Positions 9,001 through 64,000 of a DNA stretch of 64,000 bases are shown here, piece after piece (the stretch's first letter is position 1; each line of letters opens with the position of its first letter). A program made the translations under genes and the position numbers. The notes below the pieces were generated by a model. It saw nothing but the letters and a program-made list of their open reading frames with translations, was not told the origin of the DNA and did no database searches. Location of the stretch: NCBI GenBank assembly GCA_002269645.1, contig NIVC01001433.1:201438-265437 (forward strand), written 5' to 3'. The DNA is from Macrostomum lignano (Eukaryota).

Positions 9001-11643
9001 TGATCACTCTCTGACCTTATCACTTTCTGACCTGATCACTCTCTGACATTATCACTCTCGGATCTTATCACTCTAATCGTTCGCTAATCTTATCAGTTTC
9101 TCATTTCGTCACTCTCTCAACTTTTCGTATACAATCAATGTGAATTCTCAAAACGTATAAATACCCCCCACCAAAAAGACAGACACCCACCTGTCCACCC
9201 GACGTCAATCTTCGTCGCCTCGCTCGCCGCTTTCTGACTTCGCATTCCAATATGAGAAACTGGCCAGCCTGCGGCGGCGTCACCGCCGGATACGGCTCGA
9301 ACCATTCAGGCGAAGATCCCATTATTGATTGACAGGTGGCCGCGTCCAACAGGCTGACCGAGCCGTTAGTTCGGACAATAATTAGCACAGCCTCTGACCA
9401 CCATTCAACTCCGGAGGGCCGGTCACCGGGCTTGCCCGGATACAACCGCCTGGGCACGCCAAGCACTCTGGTGCGAGACAGATGCGGACTCCGAACACTC
9501 GACAGGCACTGTTCGGCTAGGGAAAATGTTGCTATCAAATTCCCAGCCGGAAATGTCCAAACAGACACGCAGCCGTAGGCGTAACTAGCGGCTAATTTGA
9601 AACCGTCCGGCGATAGGGCCATAGAGGTGACGCAATCGGTTCGACTGCGATTGCGCAATAGTACAGAGGCTAGTAAACGGCGGGATCGGCCAAGCTCAAT
9701 CATGTCCTCCTCTAGGGCTAGGGAGGCCTACGAAATGATAGTTATAATTAAGCAAATAAATAAATATTCCAGGTGCTTTTGGTTTTTGGCCGCGGCTTAG
9801 GGCTCCCACATAGAATGTACATAGTCCTTAAACAACAACCCTAGAATGTACACAGCTTAACAAACCTCTACCCCACAATGTACAGTCCCTAACCAACCTT
9901 TACCCCAAAATGTACAGTCCCTAACCAACCTCTACCCTTCAATGTACACAGTCCCTAACCAACCTCTACCCTTCAATGTACACAGTCCCTAACCAACCTC
10001 TACCCTTCAATGTACACAGTCCCTAACCAACCTTTACCCTTCAATGTACACAGTCCCTAACCAACCTTTACCCTTCAATGTACACAGTCCCTAACTAATC
10101 AACTTCTAGAGCACAATGTGCACAGCCATTAGCCAATTGATTAAATTTTACATTCAATTCGCTATCTCACCTTAATAAATGGAAACTCGCTGATCCTACG
10201 CCACAACTGAATACCGTGCTGTAGCGGAGCAGACAGGGTAGGACTATGCCGCATAGTACAAGTGCCAAGAGCCAGAGTGCCTGACACAGAATCGTAGCAG
10301 CCGCAAAACACCGGTTGGCCAGCAACTCGGTCGCGTATATTATAAGCGCTTAAACACTGCGGCGATTCAGTTTGAGGAAACTGTTGCTGTTGTTGCTGCT
10401 GCTGCTGCGGCGGCTGTTGCAGATCCAATAGAAACTGCTTTAACATGCCGGATATGGACACTGTGAAAAGTACAATCACTCCGCCGCTGGTAGAGCCGTC
10501 GTCTCCGCCGCCGCCAGATTCTAGCATTAAGAAGGCCAGAGGACAGCCCGACGGATTGTCGGTCACCTGCGCGGGCGGGGTACCAAATGAATAGTTACGA
10601 GTAGTGTATTTCAATCGAACAATTTCAATTTAGGAATAACAACACTTGAAACTCAGAATCCAGAAATTTCAAACTAAGAATCCCACGACTAATCAGATCA
10701 GCTTTCTAAGACTCCATCTCAGCAACTCAGGACTCCCAACTCAGCATCATACGGCTCCATTATAGAATCTTGGAATTCCAACTCAGCATCCCAAGACTCC
10801 TAACTCAGCATTCCAAGACTTACAACTCAGCATCCCAAGACTCCCATCTCAGCATCCTAAGACTCCCAACTCAGCATCCCAAGACTACAACTCAGCATCC
10901 CAAGACTACAACTCAGCATCCCAAGACTACAACTCAGCATCCCAAGACTACAACTCAGCATTCCAAGACTCCCAACTCAACATCATACGGACGGCTTTAT
11001 CATAGAATCCTGGAATTCCAACTCCGCATCTGATTAAGTCTCAATTTAGAAAAGCCTGTAGAAATCCCCTCACCTGTTCAGGCGCCAGTTCGCATAATTT
11101 CTGTCCTCGAATGTTAAACACAAGGACGCCACCGTTGCTATTAGCAACGGCAATGCATTGGGAATCGGCCGACCAGCTCATCAGTCGCCATTGACAAAAC
11201 TGATCTGGCGGCGTTGCTATGACAACTAAAGCTTCATCTAGGCCTCTCTTTAAACTATACAGCTCTAATTGGCGACGTTTTAACAAAGCTAATCGTCGAC
11301 CGTTCGGCGACACGGCGATAATCCATGGCAGTCTGGTAGCTCTGTGCTCCTCAATCTCCGGCGGAACTAATTGAGGCGACACGCTCAACCAGAGTTTGTT
11401 CATCAACTGGCCGGACAGACTGTCAGCCACTGGCCGAAGCGGCGATTGTTGTCCGAGGCCAGTGTCGGCCAAATATTCGTCGTAGTCTTCGTCTACTCGA
11501 CATTCTTTGAGCAGTTTTCTGAAGTAATGCAACGTATCGTCATCGTTGCTAGCGCAGGCGCTTGAAGAATCAGCAGCTGCTGCAGCAGCGGCCGGAGATA
11601 CTGGAGAAGACGGCATCAATTCTTCTCGACGCGATGTCTGCAT
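1..11643 (-). CDS. NBAS: NBAS (neuroblastoma-amplified sequence / Sec39 family, NRZ tethering complex and NMD factor), 5' part; gene continues beyond the left edge
   Basis: Seven exons with GT-AG boundaries that join in frame: 11074-11643, 10171-10566, 9191-9727, 6776-7477 (acceptor least certain), 5640-5762, 4717-5211, 1-1106 (open to the edge); ~1309 codons in the window. N-terminal beta-propeller-like segments (PDQFCQWRLMSWSADS, GVEWWSEAVLIIVRTNGSV). NBAS-typical blocks: YGEALLLARNYGLDTDLVYQRQW, IDDFLVRINKRHWVLHECLHRVP, RQLLAHLHRLDCYE, VDNALCLLELGVERG, DYFNSAASATDPTIALAKRCL. The start Met (11643 or the next in-frame Met) is uncertain. Confidence 0.9.
1497..1691. mobile_element. ~195-bp MITE (Tourist/Harbinger-like TIR)
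   Basis: Perfect 18-bp terminal inverted repeat GGGCCGTATGCAGAAAGC (1497-1514) / GCTTTCTGCATACGGCCC (1674-1691); no coding capacity; no clean TSD. Confidence 0.65.
1850..4100 (+). mobile_element. Degenerate CACTA/EnSpm (CMC)-type transposase in NBAS intron 6, antisense to the host gene
   Basis: Ordered motifs across frameshifts and stops: NIDGLHLYKSSSASLWPIL (~2670-2730), FICDAPMRAFIQCIAGHTSTNGCGYC (ORF 2761-3042), FPLDY..LV.CLGIFRRL (~3121-3180), FPCEFQRATRQL...YKA (~3280-3350), YNFHIL.HL...GPL...FCFENYLGRLK (~3560-3665). Element ends not identified. Confidence 0.75.
4166..4615. repeat. 24-bp minisatellite (TGATCATAGAGACACTCCTATTAT)n, ~18 units
   Basis: Direct tandem repeat; produces the spurious (LLIIETLL)n ORF. 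Confidence 0.95.
5325..5535 (+). mobile_element. tRNA-derived SINE relic in NBAS intron 5
   Basis: A-box-like TAGCAAAGTAGTTA and B-box GGTTCGATTCC (~5368-5378) without a full cloverleaf, followed by a ~150-bp body. Confidence 0.5.
5808..6701. repeat. 43/45-bp G-rich minisatellite with higher-order pattern in NBAS intron 4
   Basis: Unit GGGAGGGTGGGAAGGGGCAAAGTGGCAACCAACTGAAGGATCA, interspersed with a variant containing GGGTCGGGATGGAGCGC. Confidence 0.95.
7598..9075. repeat. 16-bp minisatellite (GACCTGATCACTCTCT)n, ~90 units, NBAS intron 3
   Basis: Period 16 (e.g. GACC at 7713 and 7729); a variant block CGGATCTTATTAGTCTGACCCTATC recurs at ~7790, 8041 and 8757. Confidence 0.95.
9845..10100. 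repeat. 34-bp minisatellite, NBAS intron 2
   Basis: Unit AATGTACACAGTCCCTAACCAACCTCTACCCTTC. Confidence 0.9.
10725..10985. repeat. 21-bp minisatellite, NBAS intron 1
   Basis: Unit CAACTCAGCATCCCAAGACTA (reads as TTQHPKT in the ORF track). Confidence 0.9.
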
Positions 11644-11654
11644 GTAGCCAGTGG

Positions 11655-11917
11655 GCCGATATGTATCGAAAATGTTTAACTAGACTAAGGAAAAATCGCA
11701 CATACTTATTGAATACGTGTTTAGCTACCCTTAATAAAAATTGCACATCTGCATTAAAAAGTTTCACTTAGCGAAACTGCCGATATGTATCGAAGCTACA
11801 TTTCACCTACTTAAAGAAAAAGCCGATATGTATCGAAACTACGTTTTACTTACTTAAAGAAAAAGCGTCGAAAATATGTCTAATTTTTTTAGGAAGAAGC
11901 CGACCGATATGTATCAA
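11655..11917. promoter_or_regulatory. Cluster of four palindromic CGATA-TG-TATCG motifs just upstream of NBAS
   Basis: GCCGATATGTATCGAA at 11655, 11779 and 11822; CCGATATGTATCAA at 11904. Function is inferred only. Confidence 0.35.
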
Positions 11918-12648: not shown

Positions 12649-15562
12649 TCAGATAAGATCGGCAACGTTCATTGGCATCTCGTCAATCTGGGTTGAGTAG
12701 TACTGCTCAATATCTCGCAGAATTTTGATGTCGTCAGTTTTCACAAAGCTAATAGCGACTCCACGGCGGCCGAATCGACCAGATCGACCAATTCGATGAA
12801 TGTAGAGCTCGCGATTATTAGGCAGATCGTAATTAATGACCAGAGACACCTGCTTGACATCGATGCCGCGAGCCCACACGTCGGTGGTAATTAACAGGCG
12901 GGTAACTGTGGCGCGAAAGTCTTTCATAATTGCTTCGCGCTCCTTCTGCGGCATGTCGCCGTGCATCATGGAGACTGTGAAGTTCGCCTCCTGCGGGTTG
13001 GTGCGTTGCGGTTCGGATTGAGAGGAATTAGCACGCCGATGGGCTAGAGATGGAGTGACAGACGACTGATGGACAAAGAGAGACGAAAGTGACAGGCAAC
13101 TGATGGACAAAAAGATACGGAAGTGACAGGCAACTGATGGACAAAAAGAAACGGAAGTGACAGACAACTGATGGACAAAAAGAAACGGAAGTGACAGGCA
13201 ACTGATGGACAAAAAGAAACGGAAGTGACAGGCAACTGATGGACAAAAAGAAACGGAAGTGACAGGCAACTGATGGACAAAAAGAAACGGAAGTGACAGG
13301 CAACTGATGGACAAAAAGAAACGGAAGTGACAGGCAATTGATGGACAAAAAGAAACGGAAGTGACAGGCAACTGATGGACAAAAAGAAACGGAAGTGACA
13401 GGCAACTGATGGACAAAAAGAAACGGAAGTGACAGGCAACTGATGGACAAAAAGAAACGGAAGTGACAGGCAACTGATGGACAAGAAGAAACGGAAGTGA
13501 CAGGCAACTGATGGAGGAACATGTGGAAGACAGACAATTGAAGGACAAAGCGTACGAAGTTTCGGCAGGGCCCAAAGCCCTTTGCAAACTAACTGAGCAA
13601 AGCAAAATTAGCAGCCATTCACTTTAACAGCTTACCAACATCTTCTCGGCAAGCCATTCAACCTTGCGCTTCGTATTGCAAAAGATCACGGCCTGCGAGA
13701 TAGTCATGGTGCCGTACAGGTCAATAAGCGTGTCGTATTTCCACTCTTCGCGTTCGACGGCAACAAAGAATTGTCGAATACCCTCCAGGGTAAGCTCGTC
13801 GCGTTTCACCAGGATGCGAACTGGATTGCTCATGAATTTTGATGTCATCTCAAGGATCTCGTGCGGCAGAGTGGCACTTACGAGGACAACCTAAGCATTG
13901 GGGTTAGAGTAAAGTTAAGAATAACAATAAGAATGTACTATTATCTGATTAAAATGGAATTTTGAGGTGCGAGTGTACATTGACGCTAGACGGAATATGG
14001 GGGTTGGGAGGTGTGCATACATTGGGGCTAGACGGAATGGGGTTGGGAGGCGTGTGTACACTGGGGGTAGACGGAATGGGGTTGGGAGGCGTGTGTACAC
14101 TGGGGGTAGACGGAATGGGGTTGGGAGGCGTGTGTACATTGGGGCTAGACGGAATGGGGTTGGGAGGCGTGTGTACACTGGGGGTAGACGGAATGGGGTT
14201 GGGAGGCGTGTGTACACTGGGGGTAGACGGAATGGGGTTGGGAGGCGTGTGTACTCGTATGTGTACATCGGGACTAGGCAAAAGTGTACATATTTTAGCC
14301 ATATTTCTGTGCACATTTAACCAAAAATTTTCACCTGAGTCCCAGGTGGCAAATAGCGATAGACATCGTAAATTTGCTCCTTAAATCCTTTATCAAGCAT
14401 TTCGTCGGCCTCGTCCAAGATTAGCATTCGAATAGCCCGTGTTCGGAGGTTCCGCCGGCGAATCATGTCCAACACGCGACCGGGAGTGCCGGCAACAATG
14501 TGCTGGCCGTAGTCCAACTTGCGCATATCCTCGCCAACGTTTGTACCGCCGTAGGAGGCGTGGCATTGAACGTTCATGTAGTCGCCGATGGCTAGCACCA
14601 CCTTAACAGGGTTTGAATTTGTTTTGAAAGGCAGTTTTGTGAGCCGCAGAAACTACTTATAGTCTCTATAAATATCCGCTCCGATACGCATCTTCTAAAA
14701 CCATAATACGGCTTTATAACCCCACAGATCTCGATTAGTAATCCCACTAAGCATCATTCTCCTAATCTACAATCCACTCTAAGCCTCATGCTCCTAATCT
14801 ACAATCCACTCTAAGCCTCGAGCTCCTAATCTACAATCCACTCTAAGCCTCATGCTCCTAATCTACAATCCACTCTAAGCCTCATGCTCCTAATCTACAA
14901 TCCACTCTAAGCCTCATGCTCCTAATCTACAATCCACTCTAAGCCTCATGCTCCTAATCTACAATCCACTTTAAGCCTCGAGCTCCTAATCTACAATCCA
15001 CTCCTAATCTACAAGCCTCATTCTGGTAATATATAATCCACTCTAATCCCCCATTCTCTTAATCTATAATCCGCTCTAAGACCTATTCCCTTAATCTATA
15101 GTACCTATCTCTATTCTCATCTTGTAGATTCACTGACTAATCGTATATATTTTAATAACAGACTTGCATATTCAGTACTATGAGCAGCAACCAACAGCAT
15201 TTGCAATTTACCTTCTGAATCTGCGAGGCCAGCTCTCTAGTAGGCGCCATTATGAGCACCTGAGTCTCCCTAGTCTGCGTATCGATCACCTGCAGAGCCG
15301 AAATGGAGAAAGTAGCCGTTTTACCGGTGCCACTCTGAGCCTGAGCGATAACATCACGGCCGCTAACAATCTGTTTAATAGCTCTCTGCTGTATAGCCGA
15401 TGGCCGTTCGAAGCCGTACGCGTAGATACCGCGCAACAGTTCCGGTTTCAGCTTCATATCCTCGAAGCTAACAGCAATGGTGACATCTTCGGACGTTTCA
15501 AATTCGATGTTTTTCATGTCCTCGTCTAAGCCTCCTTCGTCGCTTCGGTGAGCTCGCGCCAT
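12649..15562 (-). CDS. EIF4A3: Eukaryotic initiation factor 4A-III (DEAD-box helicase, exon junction complex core), 404 aa
   Basis: Exons 15212-15562, 14335-14601, 13636-13890, 12649-12990, all GT-AG and phase 0. Motifs: [52 protein letters not shown]. eIF4AIII-diagnostic stretches: [45 protein letters not shown]. Confidence 0.97.
13055..13515. repeat. 34-bp minisatellite, eIF4A3 intron 3
   Basis: Unit GATGGACAAAAAGAAACGGAAGTGACAGGCAACT. Confidence 0.95.
13975..14255. repeat. 39-bp G-rich minisatellite, eIF4A3 intron 2
   Basis: Unit GGGGGTAGACGGAATGGGGTTGGGAGGCGTGTGTACACT. Confidence 0.95.
14745..15020. repeat. 32-bp minisatellite, eIF4A3 intron 1
   Basis: Unit CTCTAAGCCTCATGCTCCTAATCTACAATCCA. 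Confidence 0.95.
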
Positions 15563-15639
15563 TTTTTCTCTTGCAATAAACACATGCAACAAATAGATAG
15601 ATACATGTTGATAACATGTCAATAAATGGATTTACTATC

Positions 15640-20170: not shown

Positions 20171-20895
20171 TAGGCAGTGACTATTCGTCTGGTATTGGAT
20201 GAATAATGTAACTATTATTCGTCTGGTACTGGATAAATAAAACTGAAGTTATTTGTCTGCTACTGGCTGAGCAGCCTGAGCTGCGTGAATTTATATGCCA
20301 CTCTGCGTATCTTTTCTAGCAAGGTATACTAGTTTGATTTTAGAATGTCTTCCTGAAATTCAGTCAGTACTGAGTTCGAATGTATAGTTATGACTCCACT
20401 TTTTTATTGTAACAACTCCAAGTGTTATTGTAATAACTCTTAAGTCCTTACTTTGGCATTTGTTTATATAGCAGCAAATGTTCCTATTATTTTTTTTGAC
20501 TATACCATGTATCATGACTAGGTCTACTGTTTACTGTGAAACCAAAACAAACTGATATGTATAGAAAGAAATATAATAAAGGTAAAAATTATTTAAAACT
20601 TTTGGTATTTTGCCTTTGCCTTTGGCCTTAGAAGGGTTTCACCAACTATGATCTGATCTGAGAAACAGCACTATCTAATCATAATAAATATTTTCTGCTT
20701 CTAGCCTAAAAGTGGACTATATAGGCCCCTAGTACTTTTTAGTATTCCCTATATTTTACAAGTTTTTATTATATAGGCCTATCTACTTCTATACTATGCC
20801 AGACAAATAACTTCATTTTTATTTATCTGGTACTAGACAAATAACTTCACTTTTATTTATCTGGTAGGCCTACTAGGCCTAGATAAATAGTCATT
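20171..20895. mobile_element. Decayed foldback/MITE-like element with ~90-bp inverted arms built of ~34-bp subrepeats
   Basis: The reverse complement of 20171-20260 aligns to 20798-20895 (CAGACAAATAACTTCA...TTTATTTATC..GTAC.AGAC.AATAA...AGA..AATAGTCA.TG). Confidence 0.55.
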
Positions 20896-23471
20896 GTCAT
20901 CTAAATAAGTAAAAAGATATTGCTTCATTTTCTCAAATTTAAATGTAAGCCCATCTAGATTGTCTTATCTATTTTTCTACTGCCTACTGTCTCTACTGAC
21001 TATTTATTTAATTCTAGATCTAGAATTAGAATAGATAACCATTTAATAAAGCTTAGGCTAGGGTTAGCCAAGCCAAGGTTAAGTTAAGTTGTTAAAATAA
21101 GATCAGATTGGATGATCTGATCAAAAGTTTGGATACATCATTAATAATTTATTATATTTCAAATTTATATATAATTATTGCCTAGGTCAAATGGGTATAG
21201 GCCCCCTATCCTTGAACCTAGGCCTAACAATTTTTAATTTGAGATAAATATCTAACAATATTGGCCTAGTTGTATAGGGGGCCTGGATAGGGATTAATAT
21301 AGTTTTTATTTTAATTATATTATATTAGGAAATTAGAGTCTATTTGGGTCAATTATTTTGACTTTAGCAAGTTAGACTATAAGCTATTTCAAGTAAAAAA
21401 TGACTAAAGCCTAAAGGCTGTAGGCTAAAGGTTTCAACCTACTTTGACAAAAGAATTTTTGGCAAAGTTAATAATGGCAAAAAATACTTTCTTAATTACC
21501 ATTTTGTCTAAACGTAGCCATTTTTGCATAAAAATTTATTGATTGATCTAAGCTTTAGCAAAGAGTTTTGAATTTTTTTATTTTAGAAAAAGTCAAAGTC
21601 AAAACAGATAAGCTTTATGAAAACTATTTTATTGTCATATATATTTTTATTTTGTAGCAATTTTATTAGGGGGCCTATTTTATTTTCACAAACTACAAAA
21701 TATGCTTAGGTAGTCAATGAATAATTTATTAAAAGCTACAATGCCCAAAGCATTATGTTTGCAATTATAAGTTGCCTATATCCTGCCAAACTAGTCACTG
21801 TTTTCATTGAAATTTATATCTATTTAAACTACATATTCACTTTTATTAAAGCATTCTTTTGTTAAAAATTCCTTTGCTATAATGGGCTATACCCAGGCTG
21901 AATGAATAAACATTAGTAGTAAAACTAGAAATTAGTTAAAAAGGCAGATTCTAGAAGTTAAATATCCAAGAAGGATAAAAAGGGTAGTTCTATATTTTAG
22001 CATATATATTTTTTTTGGTCCTCTGAAGCCTTATTGTAGCCAATGGCCATTATTATAGATAGTGTCTAATATAGATTAATTTGGTGGTATAGGTGGGGTT
22101 TAGCACATTGGTGTGATCTAATATTAGTCTATGATCTAGTCTGGAGGATATCTAATATAGTTTAGACCTTGGCTATAATAGGTTGTCTACTAAGAGGATA
22201 AGGCAATTACCCCTTACATCCCCTTTGGTTATGTCATCAGTAAGTACTATTTATATATTTTAAACATGTTATAATAATGTATTCTAATGCTAAAAAGCTA
22301 CTAATAGTCTAAGATATGGCTAGAATATTTCATTTATTATTTGAATCAGTATAGTGTTACAATGTGCTTATATTGTAATAAGTATATATTTTGACTTGTT
22401 ATTCTATATAATGTATATAGATAATAAATATACTTATTTAGGCAAATGGGTTTAATTATTACAAATAATATTCTAACTTAATAATATGACTTTTTAATAG
22501 TGAAATATCAACAATTGTTTATTAATATATCACTTTTTTTCTAAAAATTCATAATGTTCATTTGACAAAAAAGAATTGCTTTTTTAAAATTGTTTTTTAT
22601 ATTAAAATATTTTTAATCCAAGACTTTAATCACTTAAACAATGAACTAGCAGATATTTAGTGCTAGTCTTTAGATAGCTTAAACATATTATTATATTTCT
22701 ATTTTAATATGGTTATATTTCATATTGAGAACTGATCAAACTGCTTTTCTAGCTAGCCTTAACTGAGAATCTTGCCTTAAAAAATTTTAGCTAGTTTGGA
22801 TTCTTATATTTATGAATTTTAGGATGTAAAAATATTTTTGTAGCTCATAGCTGCTTATTTACTTGATATTGTTTTTTTAATATACTTTTTATACCACTAT
22901 TATTTAGTAATTGTATAACAAAGACAATAATTAGCATTTATAAGATAGAGATGATTGAAATTAGAAAAAAACATGCTAGACAACAAACTTTGTTAAGCAA
23001 TGGTTAACCTATGATACAAAAAGCCTGTGCTTCTTCATTGTGCTGTTTCTTTGCTGTTGAGTAGGTGTAATAAATGCTGGTGTAAATACTAGACTCATTT
23101 TATGGTTGCACAATTTATGGTTGTTCAATTAAAAATAGCAATTTGCTTATGCTTCTGGTCAGGCAATATGATTATTAGTGCCCATGCACCCACCCTGACA
23201 ACTTTTCAGCATTCGAGTTGAAAAAAAGACTACTAAAATCTGGTGTTTGCTCAAAACACCCAAACACCCTTTCCTTTGTCTGTGTAGTCTTGTGCATTGA
23301 TTCCCTGACACTTTCAGCTCATTGTTGCTTTCTATATTTGTCTTGGTTACTGACGTTCTGTCAATTTTTTATAGTATTTTATTTACCAGTCTGAGTTGCT
23401 TACTGTAATCTGTATCAAAATTTCATAGCTGTGATATCGCCCTATACACACTACTCAGTTGTCAGTAAGCC

Positions 23472-24482
23472 ATGTCGGATGATTACTACGCAGTATTGGA
23501 ATTGACTCGCTCAGCCACCGAGGGCGATATTCGCAAGGCTTACAGGCGCATGGCCTTGCGCTGGCATCCAGATAAGAATCAGGACAACAAAGAGGAGGCC
23601 CATCTCAAGTTTAAAGAGATTAGCGAAGCCTACGAAGTCCTGTCCGATCCGAATAAGCGCCAAATCTACGATGTCTATGGCAAAGCCGGTCTGGAGACTG
23701 ACAATGGTAGCGGCGGCGGCGGCCGGAGTCACAGTCGGCATCACGCGGGCTTTCATCACGATTTTCATAGCTTTGTATTCCGCGATCCTCAGGAAGTGTT
23801 TCGCGAATTCTTTGGCAACAGGGATCCGTTCTCCGACTTCATGTTTATCGATCCGTTTGCCGCTTTTGGTAGGCAGCAACATTACCAACAACAGCATCAG
23901 CAGCAGCAACAGCAACAAGTTGGCAATCTATTTCAAAGCAATTTTATCGGATTCCCAACAATGCAGATGCACGATCCGTTTTTTTCGTTTGGCCAATTCG
24001 GCGGCTTGGGCAGCCACGCGGCTGTCGGCGGCGGCGGCGCCGCTCAGTTCATGAGTTTCAGCTCGTCAGGCCTGGGGCCCAGCACTCAGTTTCGGTCATC
24101 GTCCACATCTACTAGGGTAGTTAATGGCCGGCAGATTGTCACTAAGAAAGTTGTAGAGAATGGCGTGGAAACTGTCACAGTGACTGAGAATGGTCGAGTA
24201 GTGTCGAAGACTGTCAACGGTCAGGCTCAGTCTATTGAAGGCCCGTCTGGCGCCAACGCCGCTGCATCGTCTTCGTCGTCTTACGGCGCCGGTCACCATG
24301 GCTACGGTTCTCGAGCTGGCGGCGCGGCCCCGGCGCCAAGGATTTCGTCGGCTCATTCGCTGAGCGGCGGCGGCGGCCGTCCTGGCAGCAGCGGCAGCGG
24401 TGGCGGCGTCAACAAGCGCTACAGCCACCAGCCGACTGCGGATCAACAGAAACGCCAGAAGAGACGCGAAGATCGTAAATGA
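23472..24482 (+). CDS. DNAJB6: DnaJ homolog subfamily B member 6-like (MRJ; DNAJB6/2/8 class) co-chaperone, 336 aa, intronless CDS
   Basis: J-domain (DYYAVL...KAYRRMALRWHPDKN...FKEISEAYEVLSD), G/F region with FRDPQEVFREFFG, S/T-rich stretch SSSTSTRVVNGRQIVTKKVVENGVETVTVTENG typical of DNAJB6/8, and a basic C-terminal tail. Confidence 0.92.
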   Translation: MSDDYYAVLELTRSATEGDIRKAYRRMALRWHPDKNQDNKEEAHLKFKEISEAYEVLSDPNKRQIYDVYGKAGLETDNGSGGGGRSHSRHHAGFHHDFHSFVFRDPQEVFREFFGNRDPFSDFMFIDPFAAFGRQQHYQQQHQQQQQQQVGNLFQSNFIGFPTMQMHDPFFSFGQFGGLGSHAAVGGGGAAQFMSFSSSGLGPSTQFRSSSTSTRVVNGRQIVTKKVVENGVETVTVTENGRVVSKTVNGQAQSIEGPSGANAAASSSSSYGAGHHGYGSRAGGAAPAPRISSAHSLSGGGGRPGSSGSGGGVNKRYSHQPTADQQKRQKRREDRK

Positions 24483-29400: not shown

Positions 29401-32073
29401 CTGCTGCTGGACCACGCGCTCCGTCATGAGCCGTTCATCAAACTGAGCACTGGGCAGAGCTCCCATGTGCTGCAGCTGTTTCTTGATCGGGCCGATTTGC
29501 CTTTCGAACAGCAGAAGCAGCAACAGCAGGTGTGTGATCTTTGAACGATAAGAAGATTATAAAAATCTCAGCGAATTCATTATTTTATGTGTATACCGGA
29601 TATGCAGCAAAAAACTTTCATATAAGTTTTTATTAATAATCTATTGGCTAAAGGACTAGCAATCACACTGATATTAAATAAGCCTTCTATATAATTGTTT
29701 TTTGACATAAGAAATTTGTGAAGCTAAAATAGCTGTCGCATTCCCTGATATCATCGCCTAGGGATCAGCTTTCCGGCTTTTGAGCAACTCCCTCATCAGC
29801 CATGGCATCTCAGCAACTCCCCATTGAGCCAATTGGCATCTCAGCAACTCCCCATTGAGCCATGGCATCTCAGCAACTCCCCATTGAGCCATGGCATCTC
29901 AGAAACTCCTCCTTGAGCCATGACATGACAGCAACGCTTGTATAATTTGCGTTCCCACAGCAGCAGCAGCAGCCGCATTCCACTGGTGCACGCGAGCACA
30001 TCGCGGACACTGAGACCCTGCTGCACCTGTCGCTAATCCAGAGCAACATCCAGTTTAGCGAGCCGCCGCAGTGCCTGATTCTGCAGATGCCTCGATCTGG
30101 GAAGTCATATAAGATGTTCCACCGCATCCTGCCAGTGCTGCAGTTGAACATCACCAACCTGCTGCCAGACACCGCCAGGGCCTGCAACATCTGCGGCAAC
30201 TTTGCCACTATCGAGTGCCATCAGTGCTTTCTCAAGCACGACTCCGGTCGCGATTACACCTATTGCGAACCTTGCTACAATACGTTTGCGGATCACAGAA
30301 AAGGGAAAACGCATGAGCCAATCAAGATTAAATATCCTAAGCATATCCTGGAGCAATATCAGAATCCTGGACAGGTGGTTGAAAGTCAGACTGTCATGGA
30401 TCTGCTGGCTGTTGTCTGTATTTGCACCAGTCACTACGTCTGCTTCTTGCGGGCCGAGCCCAACCACTGGCTGTTCTTCGATAGCATGGCCGATAGGGAG
30501 GGCGGTGAGTTCAGACTAGCTACTCGCCTCAGCATCCTCTCTCTCTCTCATCGTCTTGCATTCCATCCCCAATTCCCATTTCATCCCAATCCCCTTGCCA
30601 TCCCCATTCCATCCCAGTAGTAGGGGTAAGCAGGGCGACAGGGCGGAGATACGAGTAAGAGGCGGGGTAGTGCATTGGGATAGGAGGAGGCCGCCTATCT
30701 CTCAACATAAAGATGGTTAACACTGCAGAGATAGGCGGAGAGGCGGCCTATCTCTTTGTACTTGGGACGGTTAACACTGCAGAGATAGGAGGAGAGGCGG
30801 CCTATCTCTTTGTACTTGGGACGGTTAACACTGTAGAGATAGGAGGAGAGGCGGCCTATCTCTTTGTACTTGGAATGGTTAACACTGCATAGATAGGAGG
30901 AGAGGCGGCCTATCTCTTTGTACTTGGAATGGTTAACACTGTAGAGATAGGAGGAGAGGCGGCCTATCTCTTTGTACTTGGAATGGTTAACACTGCATAG
31001 ATAGGAGGAGAGGCGGCCTATCTCTTTGTACTTGGAATGGTTAACACTGTAGAGATAGGAGGAGAGGCGGCCTATCTCTTTGTACTTGGGACGGTTAACA
31101 CTGCATAGATAGGAGGGGAGGCGGCCTATCTCTTTGTACTGGGGACGGTTAACACTGTAGAGATAGGAGGAGAGGCGGCCTATCTCTTTGTACTTGGGAC
31201 GGTTAACACTGCATAGATAGGAGGAGAGGCGGCCTATCTCTTTGTACTTGGGACGGTTAACACTGCATAGATAGGAGGGGAGGCGGCCTATCTCTTTGTA
31301 CTTGGGACGGTTAACACTGCAGAGATAGGAGGAGAGGCAGCCTATCTCTTTGTACTTGGGACGGTTAACACTGCAGAGATAAGATGGAGTGGGTTAGTTG
31401 AATGAATGCTTAATGTTTCCAGGTACAATATATGGCGTCCAGTAATTGACCCAATAGACTTATCTATTATCAGTAAGTACACTTAGTAAAGCAACAAAGA
31501 CCAGCCAGTAAACACTGTACAGTGCATGCAAGAAAAAACAGCTAAATCCAGGCCAATCCAGGCCCCAGACAGTTACTCTGCAGCAGCCACCCTTTCTAAT
31601 TTGTCCAGGTAGTAAAATTGTTTTTTTGTGTGCAAAAGTTAGCCGCCTCCCCTATCTCTACAGTGTTGAGCATCCCCAGTACAAAGAGATAGGCCGCCTC
31701 TCCTCCTATCTCTGCAATGTTAACTGTCTCTATGTTGAGAGATAGGCCGCCTCCTCCTATCCCAATGCACTACCCCGCCTCCTATCTCCGCCGTGTTGGC
31801 CGTGTTCTGCTAACCCCTACTACTCATCCCCATCCCCATCCCTATGCCACCCCCATTTTAACCAGTTCATAAATGATTGAATTTCCAGGCTGCAACGATG
31901 GCTACAACATCCCGGAGGTGACCCGCGTCGATGGCCTTGAAGAGTGGCTTCGCGATCTTCAAGGCAAGACAGGCAACGCACCGCCTCCAGAACAGGGCAA
32001 CCGCCTGCTAGAGGATTGCTATCTGTGTTTCTACGGCAATCCAAGATCTGTGCCCTTCCCTAGCAGCTCCTGA
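26455..32073 (+). CDS. CYLD: CYLD K63/M1 deubiquitinase, copy 1 (intact, 849 aa)
   Basis: Exons 26455-26854, 27246-27770, 28069-28723, 28807-28898, 29381-29529, 29961-30504, 31889-32073 (2550 nt, no internal stops). Three CAP-Gly-like segments (best: GLIKWLGRL...LAGVEFD), Cys-box QGHHNSCYLDSTLFAMF, EEKDPEEFINLL, QMPRSGK, B-box cysteines, His/Asp boxes TSHYV and FFDSMADREG, GYNIPEV, LLEDCYLCFY. Confidence 0.95.
28925..29330. repeat. 29-bp minisatellite in CYLD intron 4
   Basis: Unit GACTAAGTCCCTACTCTCCCAGATCCCCA; homologous arrays at 38915-39556, 50660-51302 and 61715-61775. Confidence 0.9.
30616..31824. mobile_element. Non-autonomous Polinton/Maverick-like element (mini-Maverick) in CYLD copy 1 intron 6, 1209 bp
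   Basis: Begins AGTAGTAGGGGTAAGCAG and ends CTGCTAACCCCTACTACT; ~180-bp imperfect TIRs; 6-bp TSD CATCCC (30610-30615 and 31825-31830); internal 54-bp minisatellite (30713-31380) plus a ~260-bp unique core. Confidence 0.7.
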
Positions 32074-32602: not shown

Positions 32603-33540
32603 CAGGGGCGTCGCCACCGGGGGGACATGCTAATGCTTTGTCATGCCAATGCTCCACCCCATCTTGTGACCCGTTATGGAAATCAATAATTTTGCTTACG
32701 GGCTCCAAAGCATAGCGCCTGCGGCACCAAAATGAGTGCCTTCGGCGCCAAAATGAATGTCTGTGGCGCCAAAATGAATGTCTGTGGTGCCAAAATAAGT
32801 GACTGTGGCGCCAAAATGAGTGACTGTGGCGCCAAAATGAGTGACTGTGGTGCCAAAATAAGTGACTGTGGCGCCAAAATGAGTGACTGTGGCACCAAAA
32901 TGAGTGACTGTGGCACCATAATGAGTGACTGTGGCGCCAAAATGAGTGACTGTGGCACCAAAATGAGTGACTGTGGCGCCAAAATGAGTGACTGTGGCAC
33001 CAAAATGAGTGACTGTGGCGCCAAAATAAGTGACTGTGGCACCAAAATGAGTGACTGTGGCACCAAAATGAGTGACTGTGGCGCCAAAATGAGTGACTGT
33101 GGCGCCAAAATGAGTGACTGTGGCGCCAAAATGAGTGACTGTGGCGCAAAATAAGTGACTGTGGCGCAAAAATGAGTGACTGTGGCACCAAAATGAGTGA
33201 CTGTGGCGCCAAAATAAGTGACTGTGGCGCCAAAATGAGTGACTGTGGCACCAAAATGAGTGACTGTGGCGCCAAAATAAGTGACTGTGGCACCAAAATG
33301 AGTGACTGTGGCACCAAAATGAGTGACTGTGGCGCCAAAATAAGTGACTGTGGCACCAAAATGAGTGACTGTGGCGCCAAAATGAGTGACTACTGCGCCA
33401 GAATGAGTGACTGTGGCATCAAAATGAGCGCTGACAACACCAATTCTCAAAATAATGTACATGTAGTTATTTAGTCATGTACATGCAGAATTCTTGGCTT
33501 TGTCCCCTTCCCCACCATAAAATCCATGGCGACGCCTCCG
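32603..33540. mobile_element. hAT-like MITE carrying a 21-bp minisatellite (AAAATGAGTGACTGTGGCGCC)n
   Basis: TIR CAGGGGCGTCGCCA / TGGCGACGCCTCCG (12/14 match); 8-bp TSD CCATCATC / TCATCATC (7/8); subterminal GGGGGACA / TGTCCCC; array at 32725-33430. Confidence 0.7.
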
Positions 33541-41869: not shown

Positions 41870-43568
41870 AGTAGTAGGGGTAAGCAGGGCGACAGGGCGG
41901 AGATACGAGTAAGAGGCGGGGTAGTAGTGCATTGGGATAGGAGGAGGCCGCCTATCTCTCAACATAAAGATGGTTAACACTGCAGAGATAGGCGGAGAGG
42001 CGGCCTATCTCTTTGTACTTGGAATGGTTAACACTGCAGAGATAGGAGGAGAGGCAGCCTATCTCTTTGTACTTGGGACGGTTAACACTGTAGAGATAGG
42101 AGGAGAGGCAGCCTATCTCTTTGTACTTGGGACGGTTAACACTGTAGAGATAGGAGGAGAGGCAGCCTATCTCTTTGTACTTGGGACGGTTAACACTGCA
42201 GAGATAGGAGGAGAGGCAGCCTATCTCTTTGTACTTGGGACGGTTAACACTGCAGAGATAGGAGGAGAGGCGGCCTATCTCTTTGTACTTGGGACGGTTA
42301 ACACTGTAGAGATAGGAGGAGAGGCGGCCTATCTCTTTGTACTTAATGGGACGGTTAACACTGCAGAGATAGGAGGAGAGGCAGCCTATCTCTTTGTACT
42401 TGGGACGGTTAACACTGCAGAGATAGGAGGAGAGGCGGCCTATCTCTTTGTACTTGGGACGGTTAACACTGCAGAGATAGGAGGAGAGGCGGCCTATCTC
42501 TTTGTACTTGGAATGGTTAACACTGCATAGATAGGAGGAGAGGCGGCCTATCTCTTTGTACTTGGAATGGTTAACACTGTAGAGATAGGAGGAGAGGCGG
42601 CCTATCTCTTTGTACTTGGGACGGTTAACACTGCAGAGATAGGAGGAGAGGCGGCCTATCTCTTTGTACTTGGAATGGTTAACACTGCAGAGATAGGAGG
42701 AGAGGCAGCCTATCTCTTTGTACTTGGGACGGTTAACACTGCAGAGATAGGAGGAGAGGCGGCCTATCTCTTTGTACTTGGAATGGTTAACACTGTAGAG
42801 ATAGGAGGAGAGGCGGCCTATCTCTTTGTACTTGGGACGGTTAACACTGCATAGATAGGAGGGGGCGGCCTATCTCTTTGTACTGGGGACGGTTAACACT
42901 GTAGAGATAGGAGGAGAGGCGGCCTATCTCTTTGTACTTGGGACGGTTAACACTGCATAGATAGGAGGAGAGGCGGCCTATCTCTTTGTACTTGGGACGG
43001 TTAACACTGCATAGATAGGAGGGGAGGCGGCCTATCTCTTTGTACTTGGGACGGTTAACACTGCAGAGATAGGAGGAGAGGCAGCCTATCTCTTTGTACT
43101 TGGGACGGTTAACACTGCAGAGATAAGATGGAGTGGGTTAGTTGAATGAATGCTTAATGTTTCCAGGTACAATATATGGCGTCCAGTAATTGACCCAATA
43201 GACTTATCTATTATCAGTAAGTACACTTAGTAAAGCAACAAAGACCAGCCAGTAAACACTGTACAGTGCATGCAAGAAAAAACAGCTAAATCCAGGCCAA
43301 TCCAGGCCCCAGACAGTTACTCTGCAGCAGCCACCCTTTCTAATTTGTCCAGGTAGTAAAATTGTTTTTTTGTGTGCAAAAGTTAGCCGCCTCCCCTATC
43401 TCTACAGTGTTGAGCATCCCCAGTACAAAGAGATAGGCCGCCTCTCCTCCTATCTCTGCAATGTTAACTGTCTCTATGTTGAGAGATAGGCCGCCTCCTC
43501 CTATCCCAATGCACTACCCCGCCTCCTATCTCCGCCGTGTTGGCCGTGTTCTGCTAACCCCTACTACT
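41870..43568. mobile_element. Mini-Maverick-like element in CYLD copy 2 intron 6, 1699 bp
   Basis: Same AGTAGTAG...CTACTACT termini and CATCCC flanks as in copy 1; longer 54-bp array (41970-43125). Confidence 0.7.
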
Positions 43569-44346: not shown

Positions 44347-45284
44347 CAGGGGCGTCGCCACCGGGGGGACATGCTAATGCTTTGTCATGCCAATGCTCCA
44401 CCCCATCTTGTGACCCGTTATGGAAATCAATAATTTTGCTTACGGGCTCCAAAGCATAGCGCCTGCGGCACCAAAATGAGTGCCTTCGGCGCCAAAATGA
44501 ATGTCTGTGGCGCCAAAATGAATGTCTGTGGTGCCAAAATAAGTGACTGTGGCGCCAAAATGAGTGACTGTGGCGCCAAAATGAGTGACTGTGGTGCCAA
44601 AATAAGTGACTGTGGCGCCAAAATGAGTGACTGTGGCACCAAAATGAGTGACTGTGGCACCATAATGAGTGACTGTGGCGCCAAAATGAGTGACTGTGGC
44701 ACCAAAATGAGTGACTGTGGCGCCAAAATGAGTGACTGTGGCACCAAAATGAGTGACTGTGGCGCCAAAATAAGTGACTGTGGCACCAAAATGAGTGACT
44801 GTGGCACCAAAATGAGTGACTGTGGCGCCAAAATGAGTGACTGTGGCGCCAAAATGAGTGACTGTGGCGCCAAAATGAGTGACTGTGGCGCAAAATAAGT
44901 GACTGTGGCGCAAAAATGAGTGACTGTGGCACCAAAATGAGTGACTGTGGCGCCAAAATAAGTGACTGTGGCGCCAAAATGAGTGACTGTGGCACCAAAA
45001 TGAGTGACTGTGGCGCCAAAATAAGTGACTGTGGCACCAAAATGAGTGACTGTGGCACCAAAATGAGTGACTGTGGCGCCAAAATAAGTGACTGTGGCAC
45101 CAAAATGAGTGACTGTGGCGCCAAAATGAGTGACTACTGCGCCAGAATGAGTGACTGTGGCATCAAAATGAGCGCTGACAACACCAATTCTCAAAATAAT
45201 GTACATGTAGTTATTTAGTCATGTACATGCAGAATTCTTGGCTTTGTCCCCTTCCCCACCATAAAATCCATGGCGACGCCTCCG
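44347..45284. mobile_element. hAT-like MITE with 21-bp minisatellite (duplicate of 32603-33540)
   Basis: Essentially identical at offset 11744. Confidence 0.7.
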
Positions 45285-53614: not shown

Positions 53615-55207
53615 AGTAGTAGGGGTAAGCAGGGCGACAGGGCGGAGATACGAGTAAGAGGCGGGGTAGTAGTGCATTGGGATAGGAGGAGGCCGCCTAT
53701 CTCTCAACATAAAGATGGTTAACACTGCAGAGATAGGCGGAGAGGCGGCCTATCTCTTTGTACTTGGAATGGTTAACACTGCAGAGATAGGAGGAGAGGC
53801 AGCCTATCTCTTTGTACTTGGGACGGTTAACACTGTAGAGATAGGAGGAGAGGCAGCCTATCTCTTTGTACTTGGGACGGTTAACACTGTAGAGATAGGA
53901 GGAGAGGCGGCCTATCTCTTTGTACTTGGGACGGTTAACACTGTAGAGATAGGAGGAGAGGCGGCCTATCTCTTTGTACTTAATGGGACGGTTAACACTG
54001 CAGAGATAGGAGGAGAGGCAGCCTATCTCTTTGTACTTGGGACGGTTAACACTGTAGAGATAGGAGGAGAGGCGGCCTATCTCTTTGTACTTGGGACGGT
54101 TAACACTGCAGAGATAGGAGGAGAGGCGGCCTATCTCTTTGTACTTGGAATGGTTAACACTGCATAGATAGGAGGAGAGGCGGCCTATCTCTTTGTACTT
54201 GGAATGGTTAACACTGTAGAGATAGGAGGAGAGGCGGCCTATCTCTTTGTACTTGGGACGGTTAACACTGCAGAGATAGGAGGAGAGGCGGCCTATCTCT
54301 TTGTACTTGGAATGGTTAACACTGCAGAGATAGGAGGAGAGGCAGCCTATCTCTTTGTACTTGGGACGGTTAACACTGCAGAGATAGGAGGAGAGGCGGC
54401 CTATCTCTTTGTACTTGGAATGGTTAACACTGTAGAGATAGGAGGAGAGGCGGCCTATCTCTTTGTACTTGGGACGGTTAACACTGCATAGATAGGAGGG
54501 GAGGCGGCCTATCTCTTTGTACTGGGGACGGTTAACACTGTAGAGATAGGAGGAGAGGCGGCCTATCTCTTTGTACTTGGACGGTTAACACTGCATAGAT
54601 AGGAGGAGAGGCGGCCTATCTCTTTGTACTTGGGACGGTTAACACTGCATAGATAGGAGGGGAGGCGGCCTATCTCTTTGTACTTGGGACGGTTAACACT
54701 GCAGAGATAGGAGGAGAGGCAGCCTATCTCTTTGTACTTGGGACGGTTAACACTGCAGAGATAAGATGGAGTGGGTTAGTTGAATGAATGCTTAATGTTT
54801 CCAGGTACAATATATGGCGTCCAGTAATTGACCCAATAGACTTATCTATTATCAGTAAGTACACTTAGTAAAGCAACAAAGACCAGCCAGTAAACACTGT
54901 ACAGTGCATGCAAGAAAAAACAGCTAAATCCAGGCCAATCCAGGCCCCAGACAGTTACTCTGCAGCAGCCACCCTTTCTAATTTGTCCAGGTAGTAAAAT
55001 TGTTTTTTTGTGTGCAAAAGTTAGCCGCCTCCCCTATCTCTACAGTGTTGAGCATCCCCAGTACAAAGAGATAGGCCGCCTCTCCTCCTATCTCTGCAAT
55101 GTTAACTGTCTCTATGTTGAGAGATAGGCCGCCTCCTCCTATCCCAATGCACTACCCCGCCTCCTATCTCCGCCGTGTTGGCCTGTGTTCTGCTAACCCC
55201 TACTACT
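53615..55207. mobile_element. Mini-Maverick-like element in CYLD copy 3 intron 6, 1593 bp
   Basis: Same termini and CATCCC flanks; 54-bp array at 53715-54765. Confidence 0.7.
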
Positions 55208-61683: not shown

Positions 61684-62268
61684 GTGATTTAATATTTAAC
61701 GCCTTGTTTCCAATACTAGGCTAGGTCCCTACTCCCCCAGATCCCCAGACTAAGTCCCTACTCTCCCAGATCCCCAGAAAACATGACATACCTTTTTATC
61801 CAGTAGAAGGCATGAGGGGGCTTTTGGGACAAAATTTTTCACGTCCTCCATAATCCCATTAAATCCATCCATATTATCCCCGACAGAATCAGAAAAAAGG
61901 GGGGTCGCACTTACTCCAAAAACTTCGAACATAATCCCATTAAATCCATCCATATTATCCCTGACAGAATCAGAAAAAAAGAGGGAGTCGCACTCGCTCA
62001 CAAAACGTCCTCCATAATCCCATTAAATCCATCCGTATTATCCCCGACAGAATCAGAGCATAACAGGTGTCCTACTTGTTCCGAAAACTTCGAACATAAT
62101 CCCATTATAATCCACTGACATCCACCCATAGCATCTTCGAAACAATCAGAAAATAATCTGAATTCTTCTCCCCACATTCAATCCGCAACGTGCTACCACA
62201 TCCCTAAAACTTTAAATCCCCTAACCCAGGGTCCTTACCCTTTGAAAAAAAATTAAATTTTCTCTAAA

Positions 62269-62505
62269 ATGTTTCCAGTTGTCTCTCCAGGTTCTTATTA
62301 CAAAGCGCACGAGCCTAATTACAAGAGTAAGTACCGATGCAAACTTGAATGCAGCGAGTACATGAGAAAATATTGGCCCGGCGTTGATATCAATGTCCCT
62401 AATATTAATCTAGCTCTCCAAAGACACTGGTTTCATAAGTATGGAGTAGTCATTAACGATTACGACAGCTACTATAACTTTGCAGAAATCATTAGGCAAT
62501 TGTAA
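62269..62505 (+). CDS. 78-aa hypothetical protein inside the Maverick terminus
   Basis: ATG-initiated, non-repetitive Tyr/Lys-rich ORF, convergent with the minor capsid gene; no recognisable family. Confidence 0.35.
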   Translation: MFPVVSPGSYYKAHEPNYKSKYRCKLECSEYMRKYWPGVDINVPNINLALQRHWFHKYGVVINDYDSYYNFAEIIRQL

Positions 62506-62511
62506 TTTTTC

Positions 62512-63380
62512 TCACATTCTCTCAATGATTAACGTCAATACAAACTCTTCACCGTTGAAATCAACACCCACCCCATCTTCAGTCTCAAACTGTAGCACAA
62601 TCTCGTGAATCTCCTTATTACTCAATACAACTCTTTTCACTGGATTTGGTTTCTCTACCAGCATCTGTCCTCCAGCAACAGAGTTAGAGATGTTGTACAA
62701 AATATTCGTTCGCTTTCCCTTAAATACCCAATCAAGACTGATATTACTTTTGATTAGAATATCAAACCCTTTACAATGTCTGCAATATTGGGTGCTAAGA
62801 ACAAACCGCTTACGTTTTCCCGGGCCATGCTAACGGCCCCTGACGCTTGAGTGGCGGTCCGCGCCGCGGATTCTGCCTTATAAACTTTCTTCTCGAATCC
62901 AATTCCCTATACCAAGTGTCATCTATAAACTCAACCTCCGCATCTTTGTGAACTTGCATGACCACTCTCATTACAGTGAGATCATAGGCTAGTTTGACAG
63001 GGAACAGTTTTTTATCTGGCTTTCATATCAGGTGTCTCAAAATGGTCTTTTAGTAAAGACGTTTTCTAGAAAGTAATTGTGGGTATCCACACTTTGCGTG
63101 CTCACAGGGAATACCACAGGTTCTGCTGCTGCACCTTTCCATTTGTAATAAAACTTATTATTTGCTGCCGTCACATTGGGAACGTTTGACCAACCAGTGA
63201 AGTCGTTAAGATAGACATGGTAATTAGCACCTGGATCCAGGCTAATCGCTGCTCTAATTTTTGAACAAATATCCCGTTTGAGTCATTTATTCGCCCAGTT
63301 ATTGTAATAGGAATGCTCTCCTTGGAGTGAGAAACAATATTATTTAGTCTTTCAGCATCGCTTCCATTTTTTTCACCCAA
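62512..63380 (-). pseudogene. Polinton/Maverick minor capsid protein (penton), frameshifted
   Basis: N-terminal reading ISLDPGANYHVYLNDFTGWSNVPNVTAANNKFYY and C-terminal NILYNISNSVAGGQMLVEKPNPVKRVVLSNKEIHEIVLQFETEDGVGVDFNGEEFVLTLII match the Polinton mCP pattern as I recall it. Confidence 0.7.
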
Positions 63381-63393
63381 AAAAAATTTAAAC

Positions 63394-64000
63394 TTTACTG
63401 GATGAATTGTTGATCATGTTAAGCTTCACCTTCCTCTCAAATGCATAGATAATGTACAGGTCCACGGGTGTTGCGGCAGTCCTCTCAATGTTAGTCACGA
63501 TATTCACAGGGTGTTATCAGTAGGGCATTTGTCTGGCAACACATCAGCGCCAAACATCGGATATAGAGTTCCATATTGAAGAGCAGTGATAGCCAATTCC
63601 ATTGTTCTCTTTCACAGCCAAGTCGACCAACTCGCTGTAAAATTTGCTAATCTTGTTCTGACTGAAAATCTCCATTTTGTGGCAGTGCAGGGTAAAGATT
63701 ATCACTGATTTCATGCTGAATGGACGCACGTCTCCATGCATGTAGCGTATAATGCTATTTGGTTTCTCATGTTAATAATAATATACTTGGATTGCTGCAT
63801 GATACCTCTTTAATGCGGATGTTTGTTCTAGTTTCGTTTCGCTCATCTCGACACATGTAGGCCGTGTATGCAACATCAATGTCCTTCTCTATTGCCTTAA
63901 GATAGTCTGCTTTTAGTGCAGTCTTTGGCTCAATGACTTCCAAATACAGCTCGATTCCGGTTAGCTTCACCTCCATCCTTGTGTGATCCGCCCCAGTCCA
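63394..64000 (-). pseudogene. Polinton/Maverick major capsid protein (double jelly-roll), C-terminal part, disrupted
   Basis: Fragments EVKLTGIELYLEVIEP, FSQNKISKFYSELVDL..IGYHCSSIW and the terminal VNIVTNIERTAATPVDLYIIYAFERKVKLNMINNSSSKV*; lies immediately upstream of the mCP gene on the same strand, the usual Polinton arrangement. Confidence 0.6.

Follow-up and report, generated by a model that had tools for sequence, protein, structure and literature searches.

Results

The window analysed here, a stretch of 64,000 nt from Macrostomum lignano (contig NIVC01001433.1), carries on its minus strand what we take, by ORF resemblance, to be a multi-exon NBAS-like gene (about 1-11700) and an eIF4A3-like helicase gene (about 13600-15630). 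An ORF at 23469-24482 presumably encodes a DnaJ-domain protein, likewise judged by ORF resemblance. Many introns of these three genes (window 1-25000) each hold a different minisatellite, and AT-rich inverted repeats (45 nt, 89%) of 34-bp tandem units, lying about 540 nt apart at 20215-20866, are possibly a further foldback-type element. Positions 26400-61800 are occupied by four tandem CYLD-like genes with a unit length of 11-12 kb. The first and fourth are about 92% alike, and hardly any difference separates the second from the third; the third copy has frameshifts in its last exon, as does the fourth copy, reflecting either decay or assembly error. Tandem repeats make up 29% of the window, and simple and tandem repeats were reported to account for 15% of the M. 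lignano genome in the accessible part of PMC5730564.

A short element with AGTAGT and ACTACT ends, called the mini element below, is found in the final intron of the first three CYLD-like genes. The exon near it is 96% identical to the M. lignano protein BOX15_Mlig027790g3, the other relatives of which are CYLD deubiquitinases, and tblastn mapped this protein to four tandem gene copies in the window. In the first gene copy the protein alignment joins residue 792 across 30505..31888 (plus strand), the host intron, with GT and AG seen at its ends. Copy A of the mini element occupies 30616..31824 (1209 bp), copy B 41870..43568 (plus strand, 1699 bp, second CYLD copy) and copy C 53615..55207 (plus strand, 1593 bp, third CYLD copy). 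The coordinates of copy A, the ends and the three lengths had been given in a first-pass annotation, and they held.

Core and right terminal inverted repeat (TIR) are identical between A and B at 462 of 462 positions, and the flanks are common as well. Three independent insertions are therefore rejected; a single insertion was later duplicated along with the gene. BLAST of the core and ends and a motif search revealed no further copies of tips or core within the window, and all six matches to the mini element's tip (6/6) belong to the three copies of this one insertion. An empty site is not visible in the window, the fourth CYLD copy being cut before the relevant intron.

Ends, TIRs and core were confirmed as real features of the sequence. 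Copy A runs from AGTAGT to ACTACT between CATCCC hexamers and combines these ends and the flanking CATCCC duplication with imperfect TIRs of about 195-200 bp and a 260-bp core. The left TIR (30616..30815, plus strand) starts with an (AGT)2 tip and a unique end of about 30 bp, followed by a half unit, a 51-bp hairpin unit and then 54-bp units; the 54-bp array (30715..31380, plus strand) contains 12 full units and a partial unit. The unique non-coding core (31381..31629, no strand assigned, about 40% GC) occurs within the window in the three copies only. In the right TIR (31630..31824, minus strand) a half unit, a 51-bp unit, a 54-bp unit and a degenerate inner unit accompany the (ACT)2 tip. Both TIRs are thus built alike from half unit, 51-bp unit and 54-bp unit, and only the left one is expanded. 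Inside the core, acceptor-like and donor-like signals flank 50 nt at 31422-31473, possibly an exon, either cryptic or captured, the use of which would put CYLD out of frame.

Local alignment of the two TIRs (200 x 195 nt) gave 173 identities, 16 mismatches and 17 gap columns (173 of 206 columns identical), with a score of 240 compared to a best score of 30 among 200 shuffles. Identity is highest at the tip (12/12 and 17/18), indels are found at positions 19-42, and 121 of 134 positions are identical over 43-176; the inner segments match at 53/58 and 68/76. TIRs of about 180 bp had been proposed earlier; they are present, but they are imperfect and the alignment spans 195-200 nt. As a single strand, the mini element could form a panhandle, with 135 of its first 200 nt base-paired to the right end. 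Among 157 AGTAGT..ACTACT pairs spaced 0.2-25 kb apart in the window, a 6-bp flank match was detected in six, all of which join ends of the three mini element copies.

The putative 6-bp target-site duplication (TSD) CATCCC (30610..30615 on the left and 31825..31830 on the right, both plus strand) sits inside a period-6 CATCCC run, with two further CATCCC hexamers after the right one. When flank-match lengths of 1-20 were tested, only 1 and 6 matched, while 2-5 and 7-20 failed; in the CATCCC run a duplication of 6, 1 or 0 bp fits equally well, and this is one site only. Because the insertion site is a CATCCC run, a 6-bp duplication is not proven. Self-matching junctions of period 6 amount to 7 of 54 in the right flank versus 114 of 63,989 window-wide, which justifies the caution with which the first-pass annotation had treated the TSD in this CATCCC-rich flank. 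TSDs of most cut-and-paste superfamilies fall into the lengths 2-5 or 7-10 bp, and as all flank lengths other than 1 and 6 mismatched, these are excluded. A duplication of 2-5 or 7-10 bp, as expected for a MITE of the hAT, MuDR, P, Tc1, PIF, piggyBac, CACTA or Transib type, was accordingly not found.

Owing to the 54-bp period, copy B contains an ATG frame of 186 codons, and copy A can be read in reverse through 232 codons without a stop. The previous statement that the element has no ORF is therefore not literally correct, but, the period being divisible by three, these frames look artefactual, since the plus frame through the array holds 5 stops in copy A. A coding function of the array was considered and rejected, as the plus frame is broken in copy A and the first Atlas match (0.89) came with low recognition. 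A phmmer search with the open frame of the array returned 55 matches at 9-49% identity and no near-identical copy. ORF check and BLAST revealed no coding remnant in the core, Rfam gave 0 matches for the mini element and the phage and plasmid collections contained no match to it.

Full 54-bp units number 12 in copy A, 21 in copy B and 19 in copy C, in agreement with the earlier counts. Each unit contains an inverted pair with 9-bp arms around an 11-nt spacer. The pair had been described for every unit and is indeed there, but only 39 of 52 units have both 8-mers in perfect form. A single unit folds into a 9-bp stem with an 11-nt loop at about -6.5 kcal/mol (z -1.8 on the plus strand and -3.3 on the minus strand), and 12 of 200 shuffles (plus) and 1 of 200 (minus) were as good. 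The longest perfect stem among the 32 array rows of the window belongs to the 54-bp unit (7-9 bp), all others reaching at most 6 bp.

The units of the left array differ from the right-TIR unit at 4-6 of 54 bases, and comparison of these sequences supports a derivation of the unit from the TIR. Its amplification from the left TIR, as originally suggested, was borne out, with both TIRs built of the unit and only the left one expanded. Written as strings of unit variants, the arrays read ABCDCDEFEGHI (A), JIKKIBLIBMDEMIMENEGHI (B) and JIKELIEMDEMIMEFOGHI (C), having the core-proximal end in common and differing in blocks near the TIR. Such a block pattern is what would be expected of slippage or unequal crossing over in place. 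WGATAR sites, which occur in the hairpin arms and which we take to be a GATA-type consensus, number 33, 51 and 47 in the mini element copies versus 90 in the first 25 kb of the window; the array is a possible candidate for an intronic binding-site cluster.

Other arrays in introns near the 54-bp array vary as much or more between the gene copies: a 15-bp array is present in 20/60/60/90 copies, a 31-bp array in 5/38/38 and a 21-bp array in 34/34/46 copies across the CYLD genes. A second TIR element (32603..33540, plus strand), presumably hAT-like as judged by its TSD length, lies 0.8 kb downstream of the mini element; its TIRs match at 12/14 positions and its 8-bp flanks at 7/8, and it carries a 21-bp array. 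Copies of it were observed near 44347 and 55981, the third copy being devoid of the exact right-end motif. A scan for TIR and TSD around 17 arrays recovered a TSD-flanked TIR pair only at the mini element; it passed over the hAT-like element, which has 2 TIR mismatches and was identified by hand.

The fourth CYLD copy is homologous to the other three up to 61801; at 61802 foreign DNA sets in with AGTAGAAGG. This tip marks the end of a Maverick/Polinton-like element (61802..64000, minus strand) that interrupts the fourth CYLD copy. Comparison with the empty CYLD copies places the insertion 27 nt before a splice-acceptor-like site, and TTATCC is the predicted TSD. Subterminal repeats (83 bp x 3.2, 61849-62114) are followed by a penton-like gene (about 62515-63356, minus strand) and a major capsid gene (about 63391 to the window edge, minus strand), both split into several frames by either decay or assembly error. 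Between repeats and penton-like gene, an 82-codon frame at 62257-62505 (plus strand) had no Pfam match. The capsid fragment is 63-67% identical to two proteins bearing the double-jelly-roll domain PF21738.

The penton-like fragment is 60-77% identical to nine unnamed proteins of about 280 aa, the Atlas neighbours of which are largely viral. A structural model of these relatives most resembled virophage and adenovirus pentons, the likeness being weak (Foldseek best E 2.5e-3 to the mavirus penton at a model pLDDT of 57), and the top 5 VIA rows were all capsid or penton chains with Z scores of 5.8-7.9, below the level that the tool calls 'clear'. At an E value of 0.001, Pfam assigned no family to 8 Maverick fragments or the 9 penton relatives. 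We therefore call the gene penton-like only tentatively, from its modelled fold. As far as the call goes, the element at 61802 appears Maverick-like only, and its integrase and polymerase (pPolB) region would lie beyond the window.

At their tips, the Maverick-like neighbour and the mini element are identical at 5/5, 8/9, 11/15 and 13/20 terminal bases, and nothing further is alike. On both strands together, and leaving aside the six mini element tips, 18 of about 128,000 positions match the mini element's tip at 8/9, that at 61802 among them. All eight local alignments of the neighbour with TIR, unit and core (8/8) scored at shuffle level, no fewer than 144 of 200 shuffles doing equally well in each. 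The neighbouring Maverick was considered as a TIR-matched helper and this proposal was unsupported, the likeness being limited to the first 9-20 nt of the tip. The neighbour shows that AGTAG-ended capsid elements integrate in the M. lignano genome and have repeat-built ends. The hexamers before both AGTAG-ended insertions contain ATCC (CATCCC at 30610-30615 and TTATCC at 61796-61801), and a common ATCC target preference is possible, with two sites only to judge from.

Discussion

The mini element shows the Maverick end motifs, (AGT)2//(ACT)2 or alternatively (AG)3//(CT)3 in this group, in their first form, and its TIRs of about 195-200 bp are long as in Mavericks/Polintons. An autonomous Maverick would carry pPolB and integrase in 13-25 kb, in contrast to 1.2-1.7 kb with only repeat-frame ORFs here. 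Being short, non-coding, TIR-bounded and variable in its array, the mini element also has the features of a MITE with an internal array. On balance we lean towards a MITE-sized, TIR-only non-autonomous Maverick/Polinton derivative that was inserted in trans. Such a derivative could have arisen from a Maverick that lost its coding interior, or from two Maverick ends that captured a 260-bp spacer. Maverick integrases are of the retroviral-like DDE type; that of a helper would have read the terminal 12-18 bp and produced one insertion in the last CYLD intron by a 6-bp staggered cut. The insertion was then copied when the 11-12 kb CYLD unit was duplicated in tandem, as the window shows, and the 54-bp unit of the left TIR gained and lost copies in place, probably by slippage or unequal crossing over, a mechanism suggested by the observed pattern. 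The hairpin of the unit perhaps aided this change in copy number, which the other intron minisatellites here undergo as well.

Several observations support the TIR-only derivative. Ends and putative 6-bp TSD match the Maverick signature described in the accessible part of PMC8097293, where (AGT)2//(ACT)2 with a 6-bp TSD is the commonest vertebrate form; the Maverick-type ends named in the first-pass annotation are thereby upheld. A capsid-encoding Maverick-like element with an 8/9 match to the mini element's tip is present in the same gene array. Perfect tips next to the divergent stretch at 19-42 would fit recognition of the ends only. The TIRs of the mini element consist of about three hairpin units, and the Maverick-like neighbour also has about three subterminal tandem repeats behind its tip. 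Against it stand the single insertion site, the location of the TSD in a CATCCC run and a neighbour without the TIR, unit or core. On these sequence comparisons, family membership is unproven.

The TIR divergence of about 8-10% could instead reflect an old fossil. In this main alternative, a full-length Maverick would have been inserted here and later reduced by internal deletion to its two TIRs and 260 bp, and the short form would never have moved; we regard such an origin as rather unlikely. The single site and the 16 mismatches and 17 gap columns between the TIRs agree with it, a Maverick-like element did enter the same CYLD gene array, 96% of vertebrate Maverick loci are degraded according to the accessible text of PMC8097293, and a C. 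elegans locus with Polinton remnants of several sizes is described in what could be accessed of 10.1101/2024.01.15.575659. However, the core is without coding remnant, the two termini and the flanking duplication show no damage, and the TIR differences cluster at 19-42 instead of being evenly spread. The last two CYLD copies with a mini element raise the separate question of whether part of the copy-number or array-length variation (B vs C) is an assembly artefact, the element itself being real. B and C are identical in the preceding exon (517/517) and left intron (109/109), single-base indels as in a noisy consensus occur in C and beyond, and the accessible part of PMC5730564 describes the M. 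lignano genome as hard to assemble. Yet what distinguishes B from C is a clean block of about two units, flanked by units that look recombinant, and substitutions separate A from both; we regard an artefact as quite improbable.

Imperfect TIRs are typical of MITEs, and the TSD is not diagnostic in a CATCCC flank, as would be expected if the mini element were a MITE of another cut-and-paste or unclassified superfamily with a TSD of 0, 1 or 6 bp and an AGTAGT tip that is Maverick-like by chance. TIR elements with internal arrays are common (accessible parts of PMC12628747 and PMC6947457), one of them lying 0.8 kb downstream. The exclusion of flank lengths 2-5 and 7-20, together with a capsid-bearing element in the same window that starts with the same 5/5 and 8/9 bases, renders such a chance resemblance improbable in our view. 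We consider it highly unlikely that the mini element is a replicating Maverick satellite, copied via the panhandle by the protein-primed polymerase of a helper, with hairpins that confer an advantage by adding origin or integrase sites. In favour of it, (AGT)2 has been proposed as the motif for jumping back in protein priming (PMC8097293, accessible part), a single-strand panhandle is possible, and the unit has the longest perfect stem of the arrays in the window; but a panhandle can be formed by any TIR element, homogenisation of the TIRs is not seen, the expansion is one-sided, internal and away from the tips, and the arrays of different length all go back to one insertion and vary no more than neighbouring arrays.

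For these last reasons, one-sided expansion and lengths that diverged after a single insertion next to arrays varying at least as much, the role originally given to the array as a multiplier of origin or integrase sites was not sustained. As variation in the neighbour arrays is equal or greater, and a hAT-like MITE 0.8 kb off likewise contains an array, an adaptive reading of multiplied origins is unsupported. Most likely, the 54-bp array is a passenger that grew in place like the surrounding arrays. Its inverted half-sites probably served as protein-binding sites of the parental TIR. An active gene-less mini-Maverick family in M. lignano, excised, copied and re-inserted by resident Mavericks, seems distinctly unlikely; in that case mobilisation might work across families via the common AGTAG tip, and the hairpin units might be parental origin or integrase-binding sites.

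To our knowledge, Mavericks are known almost solely from sequence and their cis requirements have never been tested. The role of their end motifs was inferred from adenoviruses (PMC8097293, accessible part), and transgenesis is established in M. lignano, as stated in the accessible part of PMC5730564. If mobile, a form of 1.2 kb devoid of genes would provide a naturally occurring minimal substrate for Maverick mobility. If an active family were true, the minimal cis sequences of this mobility would be defined in a laboratory-tractable animal, and Maverick ends would be shown to seed minisatellites. If the element is a lone fossil whose array drifts, it would represent ordinary repeat biology of a repeat-rich genome.

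The literature covered here, with Repbase and Dfam entries and subscription papers outside its scope, contained no MITE-sized Maverick derivative with a TIR-derived hairpin array and no report of Mavericks in Macrostomum, both weak absences. In Polinton element names 'N' denotes non-autonomous, and Kapitonov and Jurka (2006) reportedly described non-autonomous Polintons. The accessible parts of PMC6431247, PMC8504770 and 10.1101/2025.02.07.637071 hold nothing specific bearing on the mini element, none of six repeat terms is present in PMC10733133, and three supplement files of PMC5730564 mention no Maverick or Polinton, the repeat table being absent from those files. Anole Polintons appear to be without non-autonomous copies (PMC3014272, accessible part). 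Polinton-1N1_DR is the name of a non-autonomous Polinton in the accessible part of PMC9341505, and Polinton-N1A_NV (PMC11296320, accessible part) encodes a capsid protein, unlike the mini element. The category of Polinton-derived non-autonomous elements is therefore, going by these texts, already in the repeat nomenclature; for neither of the two named elements do the accessible texts contain a description of a TIR-derived hairpin array.

The comparisons that follow draw on the accessible parts of the works cited. The mini element resembles Mavericks/Polintons (PMC8097293; 10.1101/2023.08.22.554363) in its tips, its putative 6-bp flank duplication, with 5-8 given as the Maverick TSD range in the latter work, and a TIR length within the reported 46-1447 bp. 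It differs in size, 1.2-1.7 kb versus 12.7-24.6 kb, in its imperfect TIRs and in being without integrase, pPolB, ATPase, protease and capsid genes. Transpovirons and Tlr1 (PMC5499653), the latter having been termed a non-autonomous polinton, are likewise reduced elements of the Polinton lineage with inverted terminal repeats, but they reach about 7 kb or more and carry a helicase gene, whereas the mini element encodes nothing recognisable. In being a short non-coding TIR element with an internal array of variable copy number, it is similar to miDNA4, Xstir-MITE and Donax MITEs (PMC12628747, PMC6947457), and Tetris (PMC4079207) is grouped with MITE/foldback elements having such variable internal arrays. 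In contrast to miDNA4, a Tc1/mariner-type element with a repeat proposed to be captured, the mini element has Maverick-type ends and a unit from its own TIR.
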